Positions 9,001-12,000 of a stretch of DNA of 33,040 bases are shown here, piece by piece. The stretch lies in IMG/VR virus record IMGVR_UViG_2671180631_000013, one strand, 5' to 3'. A program made the position numbers. Source of the stretch: a virus. Taxonomy: Duplodnaviria > Heunggongvirae > Uroviricota > Caudoviricetes. Numbering within the stretch: position 1 is the first letter of the stretch; the number at the start of each line of letters is the position of its first letter.

Positions 9001-12000
9001 CGTTTCTGGCGCAGGTTCGCCAGCAGGCGGAAAAACTGGTCAGGGAGATGGCGGCATGACGACGTTAACTCAATGCCAGCAGCAGGTGCTGGATATGCTG
9101 ATTTCTTACCAGAAAGAACGTGGCTTCCCGCCAACCAATCAGGAGGTGGCAACCATGCTGGGATACCGTTCAGTGAATGCAGCGGTGGAACATCTTCGCG
9201 CACTGGAGAAAAAAGGCGTCATCACGATAAAGCGTGGCATGGCCCGGGGTATCACTCTTCATACCGCGGTGAAGGACGACGACAGCGAGGCGGTCGGGAT
9301 TATCCGCTCACTGCTTGCCGGTGAGGAAAACGCCAGGCTGCGTGCAACCCACTGGTTACATGAGAGAGGCCTGAAAGTATGAAGCTGATCCTGCCTTTCC
9401 CGCCCAGCGTGAACACGTACTGGCGACACCCCAACAAAGGGGCATTTGCTGGTAAGAGCCTGATAAGCGCGGCGGGGCGAAAATTTCAGAGCGCGGCGTG
9501 CGCAGCAATAGTTGAGCAGTTACGTCGTCTGCCAAAACCAACGTCGGCACCTGCTTCAGTGGAGATCGTGTTGTTTCCTCCGGATAACCGGATCCGCGAT
9601 CTGGACAACTATAACAAGGCGCTGTTTGACGCCCTGACCCACGCGGGGGTGTGGGAAGACGACAGCCAGGTGAAAAGAATGCTGGTGGAGTGGGGACCGG
9701 TTATCCAGAAAGGGAAGGTCGAGATCACTATCAGTAAGTATGAGAAACCGGCGGGTGCAGCCGCCTGATCAAGAGGAGAAACGAAGTATGAATAATCTGA
9801 TGGTCATTGATGGTATTGAAGTTCGTCGTGATGCTTATGGGCGTTACAGCCTGAACGATCTGCACAGGGCAGCCGGGGGAGAACAAAAAAACCGCCCGAA
9901 ATACTGGCTCTCCAATAAGCAAACCTGTGAATTGATTGAACAACTTTTCACCGAGGGTGGAATTCCGCCTCTGGAACAAAATCAACCAGTTAGCGTCATT
10001 AATGGCGGAAATAACCAGGGGACGTATGTCTGCAAAGAACTGGTGTATGCCTATGCAATGTGGATCAGCCCGTCATTCCATCTGAAGGTGATCCGTACTT
10101 TCGACATGGTAACCAGCGCACCGGAAAAATTATCCGGACAGGCTGCTGACAAGATGCAGGCTGGCGTGATCCTGCTGGACTTTATGCGCCGGGAATTAAA
10201 TCTGTCTAACTCATCAGTGCTTGGAGCCTGTCAGAAGCTTCAGGAGGCTGTTGGCTTACCGAATCTGGCACCGCGCTATGCCATTGATGCTCCTGCTGAC
10301 GCGCCTGATGGCTCAAGTCGCCCCACGCTGTCGCTGAGTGCACTGCTGAAGCAGTATGGTATCCGCCTGACGGCTAATCAGGCATATCACCAGATGGTGA
10401 AGCTGGGGATCGTTGAACAACGCGAACGATACAGCCGTACCGCGATTAACAACATCAAAAAATTCTGGTCGCTGACGGCGAAAGGCTGCATGTTCGGCAA
10501 GAACATCACCAGTCCTGCAAATCCGCGCGAGACGCAGCCGCATTTCTTCGAATCCCGATTCCCTGAGCTGTTAAAGCTGCTCGATACCGTTCATTGAGGT
10601 GACCGTGAGAGCACTACTGACCCCTGAAATTGCCCCGCGTATGGGGATCGTATTGTTCAGGCCAGGTTCAGAGCTGATGCCCCTGTTTATGCAGGGGCGT
10701 GTTCTGCTGGAGCCTGAGCCGGAACGTTATTCATCTTTCGCCAGTGGTGCCGTTCCGGCGGCATCACAACCGCTGGCGGATGATCCTGCCGTTCGGGCCG
10801 TGTTCCGCAATGAGGCAGTGATCCGTCGTGCTGGTGGCGTGGAATGTCTTGAAAGCTGGTTACTTCGTGAAAAAGGCTGCCAGTGGCCTCATTCCGACTG
10901 GCACAGCGAGAACATGACCACAATGCGACACGCTCCGGGCGCAATCCGTCTGTGCTGGCACTGCGATAACCAGCTGCGCGATCAGTTCACGGAACGGCTG
11001 GAATCAATGGCAACGGATAACTGTGCCCGCTGGGTGTTGTCTGTTGTGCGTCGGGATCTCGGTTTTGATGATAGTCACGTTGTGACAATGCCGGAACTGT
11101 GCTGGTGGCTGATTCGTAATGACCTGGCGGATGCCTTACCGGAAAGTGCAGCCCGTAAGGCACTGAGATTACCAAAGCCTGTTGTGCCGTCTGTCACCCG
11201 GGAAAGTGACCTTGTGCCTTCGGTTCCTGCCACCAGCATCATCCAGGATAAGGCAAAAAAGGTGCTGGCGCTGAAAGTGGATCCGGAGTCGCCGGAGTCT
11301 TTTATGTTACGCCCAAAACGCCGCCGCTGGGTTAATGAAAAGTACACGCGCTGGGTTAAGACACAGCCGTGTGCATGTTGTGGAAAGCCTGCTGATGATC
11401 CCCACCACCTGATAGGCCACGGTCAGGGTGGAATGGGTACAAAAGCGCATGACCTCTTTGTGTTGCCTTTGTGCAGAAAGCATCACGACGAGCTGCATGC
11501 GGATACCGTGGCATTTGAAGAGAAGTATGGCTCCCAGCTGGAGCTGATATTTCGTTTTATCGATCGTGCGCTGGCAATTGGCGTACTGGCGTAAGTGGAG
11601 AACGAGCATGAACCTTGAAGCCTTACCAAAATATTACTCCCCAAAATCTCCAAAATTGAGCGATGACGCACCGGCGACAGGCTCAGGTGGTTTAACGATT
11701 ACGGATGTGATGGCTGCGCAGGGGATGGTGCAGTCGAAAGCACCGCTTGGGTTTGCCTTATTCCTGGCAAAAGTTGGTGTTCAGGATCCTCAATTTGCGA
11801 TTGAAGGTCTGCTCAATTACGCGATGGCACTGGATAACCCGACATTGAACAAATTGAGTGAAGAAACCCGGTTACAGATCATCCCTTACCTTGTGAATTT
11901 TGCCTTTGCTGATTATTCCAGGTCTGCGGCAAGTAAGGCTCGCTGTGAGCATTGTGCTGGTACTGGATTTCATAATGTATTGCGCGAAGTGGTGAAACAC

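Follow-up and report, generated by a model that had tools for sequence, protein, structure and literature searches.

A LexA-type DNA-binding protein without an autoprotease domain in the early operon of enterobacterial lambdoid prophages

Introduction

What use could a lambdoid phage make of the DNA-binding domain of LexA, once it has been separated from the domain through which LexA dimerizes and cleaves itself? This question is raised by a stretch of 33,040 nucleotides, IMG/VR record IMGVR_UViG_2671180631_000013 (Caudoviricetes), which is referred to at its full length as the window and which is a lambdoid prophage. In its early region it carries a gene for a protein of 108 amino acids, here called mini-LexA. 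By its sequence, this is a LexA-derived DNA-binding protein that has lost the S24 dimerization and autoprotease domain and has a conserved two-helix tail instead. Tentatively, its role is taken to be that of a RecA-insensitive surrogate of LexA acting at CTGT-type operators.

The LexA-type DNA-binding domain

The gene and the parts of its product, in part defined on an AlphaFold2 (AF2) model, are as follows.

9056..9382, plus strand: mini-LexA gene (ATG start, 108 amino acids), LexA-type winged helix-turn-helix and conserved C-terminal tail, no S24 domain
9056..9265, plus strand: winged-helix DNA-binding domain, residues 1-70 (AF2 model, superposition on LexA, contact residues)
9173-9211, plus strand: recognition helix, residues 40-52 (AF2 model)
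9269..9364, plus strand: family-specific tail with two predicted helices, residues 72-88 and 93-103 (AF2 model), a putative dimerization module

An earlier note on this DNA had read the gene as a LexA DNA-binding domain without the autoprotease, and this description holds. The open reading frame (ORF) runs exactly from 9056 to 9382 on the plus strand, and residues 1-65 of its product match positions 1-65 of the 65 in the profile PF01726 (LexA_DNA_bind) with an E-value of 2.1e-19 and 69.5 bits, the cutoff being 23.7. A Pfam scan of the 108-residue protein gives no match to PF00717 (S24). The lexA equivalog model TIGR00498 scores 71 bits, under its 111-bit cutoff, and is covered at positions 1-91 of 203 only. 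With E. coli LexA, BLASTP aligns residues 1-90 at 43% identity (E 1e-21), which is more than generic winged-helix similarity; residues 2-69 of the LexA query were verified against PDB 1lea. The recognition-helix string quoted in the earlier note, RSVNAAVEHLRALEKKGVI, is found at residues 38-56. Over the structurally aligned residues the identity to LexA is 49-52%, and the model, with helices at residues 6-22, 28-35 and 40-52 and strands at 56-58 and 66-68, superposes at 0.9 A on DNA-bound LexA (PDB 3jso). Because of this superposition, together with the identity to LexA and the end-to-end match to PF01726, the DNA-binding domain is judged to be specifically LexA-type and not a generic winged helix. 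Mini-LexA is not a member of the anti-phage defence components in PADLOC, where only a marginal match of the helix-turn-helix type is obtained (E 3e-4).

E. coli LexA (PF01726 plus PF00717; PDB 1jhh, 3jso) dimerizes through its C-terminal domain and undergoes RecA*-stimulated self-cleavage by Ser119/Lys156 catalysis, whereas mini-LexA has no S24 domain. Because the catalytic domain is missing, mini-LexA should be unable to cleave itself in response to RecA*, and the earlier supposition that it is uncleavable is supported to this extent. The two proteins also differ in that E44 is replaced, the Ala-Gly cleavage site is not conserved and a new two-helix tail is present in mini-LexA, which is moreover encoded in a phage nin operon.

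According to a secondary source, helix 3 of LexA contacts DNA through S39, N41, A42, E44 and E45 (PMC3091678). Four of these five residues, S39, N41, A42 and E45, are shared by the mini-LexA of the window, in which V44 stands in place of E44. Among 23 family representatives, each below 80% identity, on which all conservation counts given here are based, S39 occurs in all 23, N41 in 21 and A42 in 20, while position 45 is E in 13 and D in 5. The R-G-I motif of the LexA wing is likewise shared and, as R64-G65-I66 in the wing region (residues 55-68), is essentially invariant in the family. This pattern of contact residues favours a LexA-like recognition of half-sites. In view of the contacts kept by mini-LexA, a competition with host LexA at SOS boxes, as supposed in the earlier note, is plausible.

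The C-terminal tail

The tail spans residues 72-108 (37 amino acids). It had been described as short and unrelated; instead, it is a two-helix module whose conservation extends to family members of about 40% identity, and the full length of mini-LexA, tail included, matches phrog_362 (residues 1-108 against positions 1-106 of 106, E 4e-59). Positions 82, 83, 86 and 87 are aliphatic in all 23 representatives. A93 is found in 21 of them, A97 in 23 and L101 in 22, and position 100 is aromatic in 22. The predicted local distance difference test score (pLDDT) of the AF2 model is about 87 in the tail, about 60 in the preceding linker and below 50 at residues 72-74. Fold searches of the PDB with the tail gave no specific or informative match.

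In the model, the tail appears as a short amphipathic hairpin of helices standing free of the DNA-binding domain, and it is most simply explained as an oligomerization module. The hydrophobic pattern and the predicted helices behind a low-confidence linker fit an exposed interaction module. Most likely, the two helices would provide dimerization in place of the lost C-terminal domain of LexA.

It could be imagined that the tail still holds a scissile bond. A88-G89 of mini-LexA (in LLAGE) is aligned by BLASTP with A84-G85 of LexA (in VAAGE). However, Ala is present at position 88 in 12 of the 23 representatives and Gly at position 89 in 10, so that, to judge from the alignment, the Ala-Gly scissile bond of LexA is not conserved in the family. 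In the AF2 model A88 ends the first tail helix and G89 begins the turn between the helices, with no extended strand or loop. Cleavage of this pair in trans was therefore rejected, on account of its presence in only about half of the family and its placement at a helix end and turn.

A further comparison can be made with LexA(1-84), the cleavage fragment, which consists, as mini-LexA does, of the same domain without the C-terminal domain. The N-terminal fragment of LexA retains residual repressor activity. Once LexA has been cleaved, ClpXP and Lon clear away its fragments (bioRxiv 2020.07.07.191791). LexA(1-84) ends in an exposed degron, ...VAA, whereas mini-LexA ends in ...ERGLKV and has a structured tail. 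Unlike the fragment, mini-LexA would be expected to persist and perhaps to dimerize.

Distribution and two forms of the family

The family was defined by combining searches by word index and by profile with an exhaustive HMMER scan. It consists of proteins of 105-135 amino acids with PF01726 and the conserved tail only. Hosts are E. coli, Salmonella, Citrobacter, Cronobacter, Klebsiella, Enterobacter, Kosakonia, Atlantibacter and Hafnia, besides phages of Shigella, and the identity is about 40% at the lowest. Among 5426 complete E. coli genomes, 2233 carry the gene. It also occurs in 61 phage records, among them those of SfV (orf42), SfII, SfIV, cdtI (orf48), mEp460 and Stx2a, Stx2c and Stx2k phages; the ORFs of these phages are 94-99% identical to the window gene. 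The gene is concluded to be under selection, in view of its constant length and of a distribution that takes in about 41% of complete E. coli genomes and at least nine genera of enterobacteria.

Many of the database entries are frameshifted or truncated, as could befit a decaying and functionless remnant of a captured lexA. Such a remnant is nevertheless extremely improbable, as the length stays within 105-135 amino acids, the tail with its invariant positions is kept at about 40% identity across the genera, and start and stop overlaps with the neighbouring genes are preserved.

The gene had been treated as unnoticed, but it is in fact widely annotated, usually as "LexA family transcriptional regulator" or as a transcriptional repressor, and it belongs to PHROG 362, filed under "transcription regulation". 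Pham 237 of a survey of Stx phages, which has the same name and Pfam domain and is given without comment, is probably the same family. Some records (cdtI orf48, RefSeq) bear the labels "RecA-mediated autopeptidases", "SOS-response repressor and protease LexA" or "LexA repressor", which are wrong, the peptidase domain being absent. No functional work on the enterobacterial family was found in searches of the literature.

Two forms can be distinguished. Short-form members are found in E. coli, Cronobacter, Salmonella (two types), Kosakonia and Atlantibacter, in the gene order DNA methyltransferase, mini-LexA, RusA, KilA-N or ANT (not in Cronobacter), DUF968 and Q. The upstream methyltransferase differs in family among these loci (PF05869, PF00145 or PF02086), and in Cronobacter a minus-strand ORF lies between mini-LexA and RusA. 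The window gene has this same location, in the lambdoid nin region upstream of RusA, DUF968 and Q.

Long-form members, from Klebsiella and Enterobacter, have an N-terminal extension and a length of 130-135 amino acids; the Enterobacter member still matches phrog_362 (E 3e-38). They are encoded in a conserved triad, phrog_1813/mini-LexA/phrog_1212, which in four different architectures stands behind an SOS-box promoter (canonical boxes, of 20.5-27 bits). Scores are those of a rough position-weight matrix built from E. coli SOS boxes, on which genuine boxes reach 13-27 bits.

Klebsiella (L007-9): SOS box TACTGTTTATTTATACAGTA, 27 bits, over the -10 element; extra gene dinI
K. michiganensis (L016-17): tandem SOS boxes, 23.4 and 14.2 bits; extra gene a prophage recA homologue
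L018: tandem SOS boxes, 25.6 and 8.9 bits; extra gene a prophage recA homologue
Enterobacter (L013-14): SOS box ACCTGTACATTCATACAGTA, 20.5 bits; no extra gene

Just 5' of the SOS-box promoter, an intrinsic terminator is found in L013-14, L016-17 and L018, and 3' of the promoter comes the dinI or recA gene of the prophage in the loci that have one. The operon runs on to DUF968, and to Q where a Q homologue is recognizable (L013-14, L018). The long-form operon is predicted to be repressed by host LexA. These relatives provide the strongest functional hint, as they place mini-LexA beside other modulators of the RecA/LexA circuit.

The gene neighbourhood also bears on the possibility that mini-LexA is not a transcription regulator at all, but a DNA-binding accessory factor for its neighbours, which targets or modulates the methyltransferase or RusA, or has a part in recombination or replication. 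The strict order in six short-form architectures, with a methyltransferase of varying family directly upstream and an overlapping RusA downstream, would be in accordance with this, as would weak winged-helix matches of mini-LexA to replication-initiator PHROGs. However, the long-form clade has no adjacent methyltransferase, and the nin region keeps the order of many unrelated accessory genes. Moreover, the kept base-reading residues of LexA point to sequence-specific recognition. Such an accessory role is considered improbable.

Besides this family, the exhaustive search brought up proteins in which the LexA DNA-binding domain occurs twice in tandem and an S24 domain is absent (P0132, P0134, P0146, P0148, P0150 and others). 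These are single-chain pseudo-dimers, and hence another use of the LexA domain without its dimerization domain.

Operon setting and expression

When would mini-LexA be made? The early region of the window contains, in this order, genes for a CI-type repressor, a cro-like protein, CII, an Ash-family protein, an O-like replication protein, a PerC-family protein, Dam, mini-LexA, RusA, a KilA-N protein, a DUF968/HNH protein and Q. The features that matter here are the following.

4478..5152, minus strand: CI-type immunity repressor with S24 peptidase domain (PF00717, E 1.5e-26)
5169..5238, unstranded: operator-like palindromes of the TGTACC-N5-GGTACA type, between the repressor and the cro-like gene; not LexA-like
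7918..8406, just upstream of Dam: PerC-family protein (PF06069; phrog_1324, "transcriptional activator")
8406..9059, plus strand: phage Dam-type N6-adenine methyltransferase (PF05869, E 1e-45; SfV annotation)
9379..9768, plus strand: RusA Holliday-junction resolvase (PF05866)
9788..10597, plus strand: co-transcribed downstream KilA-N domain protein (PF04383; phrog_129, "transcriptional regulator"; start according to the SfV annotation)
10677..11594, plus strand: DUF968/HNH protein (PF06147), the downstream neighbour in every family locus examined
11608..12360, plus strand: Q antiterminator, at the end of the early-right (nin) operon (PF03589; SfV annotation)

The Dam stop and the mini-LexA start overlap by 4 bp (ATGA at 9056-9059), and so do the mini-LexA stop and the RusA start (ATGA at 9379-9382); the latter overlap is also present in L010, L011, L019 and L020. 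These overlaps indicate that mini-LexA is translationally coupled to Dam and RusA, and the operon coupling that had been noted earlier is thereby confirmed. In RefSeq phage records, the Dam neighbour is mislabelled "phosphoadenosine phosphosulfate reductase".

The operon to which mini-LexA belongs is transcribed under the control of a RecA*-sensitive switch, the CI-type S24 repressor. A consensus scan of the plus strand detects no promoter-like site with at least 9 of 12 matches between 5100 and 10100, and no strong plus-strand terminator between the immunity region and Q. Because mini-LexA lies within this CI-controlled early operon without a convincing internal promoter, it is expected only after derepression: it should be a delayed-early gene of the rightward (nin) operon, made after induction or infection and silent in a quiet lysogen. 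In both clades, then, mini-LexA would be made only after an SOS signal has fired.

This setting bears on a version of the earlier note's idea in which mini-LexA is made in the lysogen and permanently keeps SOS genes of the host, or prophage genes under LexA control, from responding to DNA damage. The uncleavable architecture would suit this idea, and the SfV record has a putative promoter annotated upstream of dam. Yet the gene is part of the CI-repressed operon, in which the scan finds no such promoter, and the long-form gene itself stands behind SOS boxes and would thus be off in unstressed cells. In addition, cells in which SOS is blocked all the time would resemble lexA(Ind-) mutants, which are sensitive to DNA damage, and such a sensitivity is hard to square with the prevalence of the gene in E. 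coli. Expression in the lysogen with this effect is therefore regarded as very improbable, even more so than the accessory role. Regulation of the adjacent KilA-N gene, which had also been suggested, finds no support in the gap of about 19 bp between RusA and the annotated KilA-N start, as this gap has no LexA-like site.

Proposed mode of action

The surrogate reading is preferred because of the LexA-type domain, the kept contacts, the conserved tail, the time at which the protein would be made, the link to SOS elements and the fact that no other shared palindrome is found (see below). It is proposed that the tail dimerizes mini-LexA and that the dimer binds CTGT-type, SOS-box-like palindromes, which we infer because most of the base-contacting residues of LexA and its wing are kept. 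The protein would appear after prophage derepression or infection, as host LexA is being destroyed, and would re-impose repression at some or all LexA-controlled promoters in the course of lytic development. Since RecA* should be unable to inactivate it, mini-LexA would then act as a RecA-insensitive surrogate. It might act on SOS genes of the host and on genes under LexA control that belong to the phage itself, to rival or co-resident prophages or to colicin plasmids. The long-form protein could also act on the SOS-box promoter of its own operon, leading to a negative feedback.

A more far-reaching version, which is possible but doubtful, is that mini-LexA, while the phage goes through its lytic cycle, returns the SOS regulon of the host to repression and also silences competitors under LexA control. 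Among these would be prophages that depend on an antirepressor, colicin and lysis operons, and SOS toxins. The form in Klebsiella and Enterobacter would then be a self-limiting phage SOS module, with a prophage DinI or RecA, that leads into Q.

Candidate operators and DNA-binding specificity

Where could a LexA-like dimer bind? In the window, one strong SOS-box-like site is found.

13651-13670, unstranded: SOS-box-like site TACTGTAAAAATAAACAGTG, 22.3 bits against 19.6 for the best of 200 shuffles; the sole strong site in the window

The site covers codons 3-9 of the ORF of a late-region N6_N4 DNA methyltransferase (13643..14695). It is kept in Citrobacter phage phiNP and in a Providencia phage; in the latter, the DNA is 72% identical and several of the residues of the first ten codons are changed, yet CTGT and ACAG are retained. 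This suggests that the late-region methyltransferase is LexA-controlled. The site may thus be a candidate operator for LexA or mini-LexA, perhaps a real LexA-type site, with no specific tie to mini-LexA. As a cognate operator of mini-LexA it is weakened by its presence in phages without the gene and by mismatched genome counts (1078 E. coli genomes with the site, against the 2233 with mini-LexA). A second perfect CTGT-N8-ACAG, at 6138, scores 6.7 bits inside a coding region and probably occurs by chance.

About 30 bp upstream of the methyltransferase start, a hairpin is found at 13588-13616 with the stem CACTGCTTT / AAAGCAG-GTG, which is kept in phiNP and partly in the Providencia phage. It folds with a z-score of only -2.0 and matches no Rfam family.

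Within 5-6 kb of six divergent short-form loci, no palindromic operator is held in common; the only palindrome shared is CCCGC-N6-GCGGG. The hairpin of this sequence is located in the window at 12468 and at 13143-13162, and also in L006, L010, L011, L019 and L020. It is found 3' of Q in five of the six loci and upstream in Kosakonia L011 (4551), and it probably marks the late-operon terminator that is read through by Q.

Several points weigh against a LexA surrogate. Both phiNP and the Providencia phage, in which the 13651 box is kept, are without mini-LexA. In the matrix scan, no SOS box is found within about 6 kb of the Cronobacter, Salmonella and Kosakonia loci. The isolated N-terminal domain of LexA binds operators weakly, and the surrogate model therefore hinges on dimerization by the tail. 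Position 44 is never E in the 23 representatives (A, V, L, T, F, N, Y or R), and at position 45 some clades have L, T, G or A, among them the one from Klebsiella that stands behind SOS boxes; with this universal loss of E44 and these clade-specific changes, the specificity may have shifted. Finally, the sole characterized truncated phage LexA, gp6 of the Bacillus thuringiensis tectivirus GIL01, binds a palindrome of its own, GaCACAnnTGTGaC, and activates transcription from the late promoter P3 (PMC6182141).

The comparison with gp6 is instructive. Both proteins are phage-encoded LexA DNA-binding domains without protease, from early operons that are switched on by an SOS signal. However, gp6 has 66 amino acids and no tail, whereas mini-LexA has the conserved helical tail of 37 residues, and GIL01 is a tectivirus under host LexA, whereas the phage of the window is lambdoid with its own CI-S24 repressor and Q. 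The target and activator role of gp6 have been demonstrated, whereas a target and a role of mini-LexA are predicted. A BLASTP comparison of gp6 with mini-LexA yields no alignment at E <= 100, which argues that the two were captured independently, each resembling the LexA of its own host type. The enterobacterial family, although its gene is already known and annotated, thus represents an independent capture of LexA, with an architecture and a phage context that differ from those of gp6.

It is on these same observations that another explanation can be built, namely that mini-LexA is a transcription factor specific to the phage, whose operator has diverged. In the manner of gp6, it would bind a phage site unrelated to the SOS boxes of the host, activate or repress a phage promoter and time middle or late functions. 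Besides the precedent of gp6, a truncated LexA homologue with its own site, this would account for the replacement of E44 in all members and for the variation by clade at position 45 (E, D, L, T, G, A). Host LexA is highly conserved in these enterobacterial genera, which is counted in favour of such a divergence, and the filing of PHROG 362 agrees with it. On the other side, the near invariance of S39, N41 and A42 would be unexpected if each clade had an operator of its own, and the terminator palindrome being the only one shared by the six loci argues against a conserved local phage-specific operator. A gp6-like role, furthermore, has to contend with the lack of sequence similarity to gp6 and with a lambdoid late switch that is here Q-dependent. 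A diverged phage regulator, the main rival of the surrogate, is rather unlikely, though only somewhat more so than the surrogate itself and much less so than the accessory role or expression in the lysogen.

Significance of the surrogate reading

As an annotation, the observation is ordinary, but the function of mini-LexA could matter for SOS biology and for the induction of Stx phages. About two in five complete E. coli genomes have the gene, as do Shigella serotype-converting phages and Stx2a, Stx2c and Stx2k phages. If mini-LexA is a RecA-insensitive surrogate of LexA, the SOS response is actively reshaped by these prophages when they are induced. Effects might include an altered mutagenesis, changed persistence by way of SOS-controlled toxins, and cross-talk of co-resident prophages. 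The timing of Shiga toxin after antibiotics might also change, and the kinetics of toxin release could be shaped, the gene being on many Stx2 phages. In that event, the case of the tectivirus gp6 would become a general phage strategy.

Other features of the window

Some further elements lie at a distance from the mini-LexA gene or concern its neighbours only. PerC/Pch-type prophage regulators, to which the protein encoded just upstream of Dam can be compared, act on host virulence loci. In three places the window has runs of N (14913-15238, 30259-30590 and 32450-32587; 796 bases in total), which affect the holin region and two tail-region ORFs and make ORF calls unreliable there. At the start of the window, an ORF with a SocA/Panacea antitoxin domain (1..573; PF13274) is followed by an overlapping ORF without family match (570..989), and the two may form a toxin-antitoxin pair. 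Within the ORF of the Ash-family protein (6035..6871), an isrK Hfq-binding RNA (Rfam, 64 bits) at 6395-6471 adjoins a C4 antisense RNA (82 bits) at 6496-6583. This pair in the immunity region suggests an RNA-controlled antirepressor module of the P1/P7 type alongside the CI-S24 repressor.

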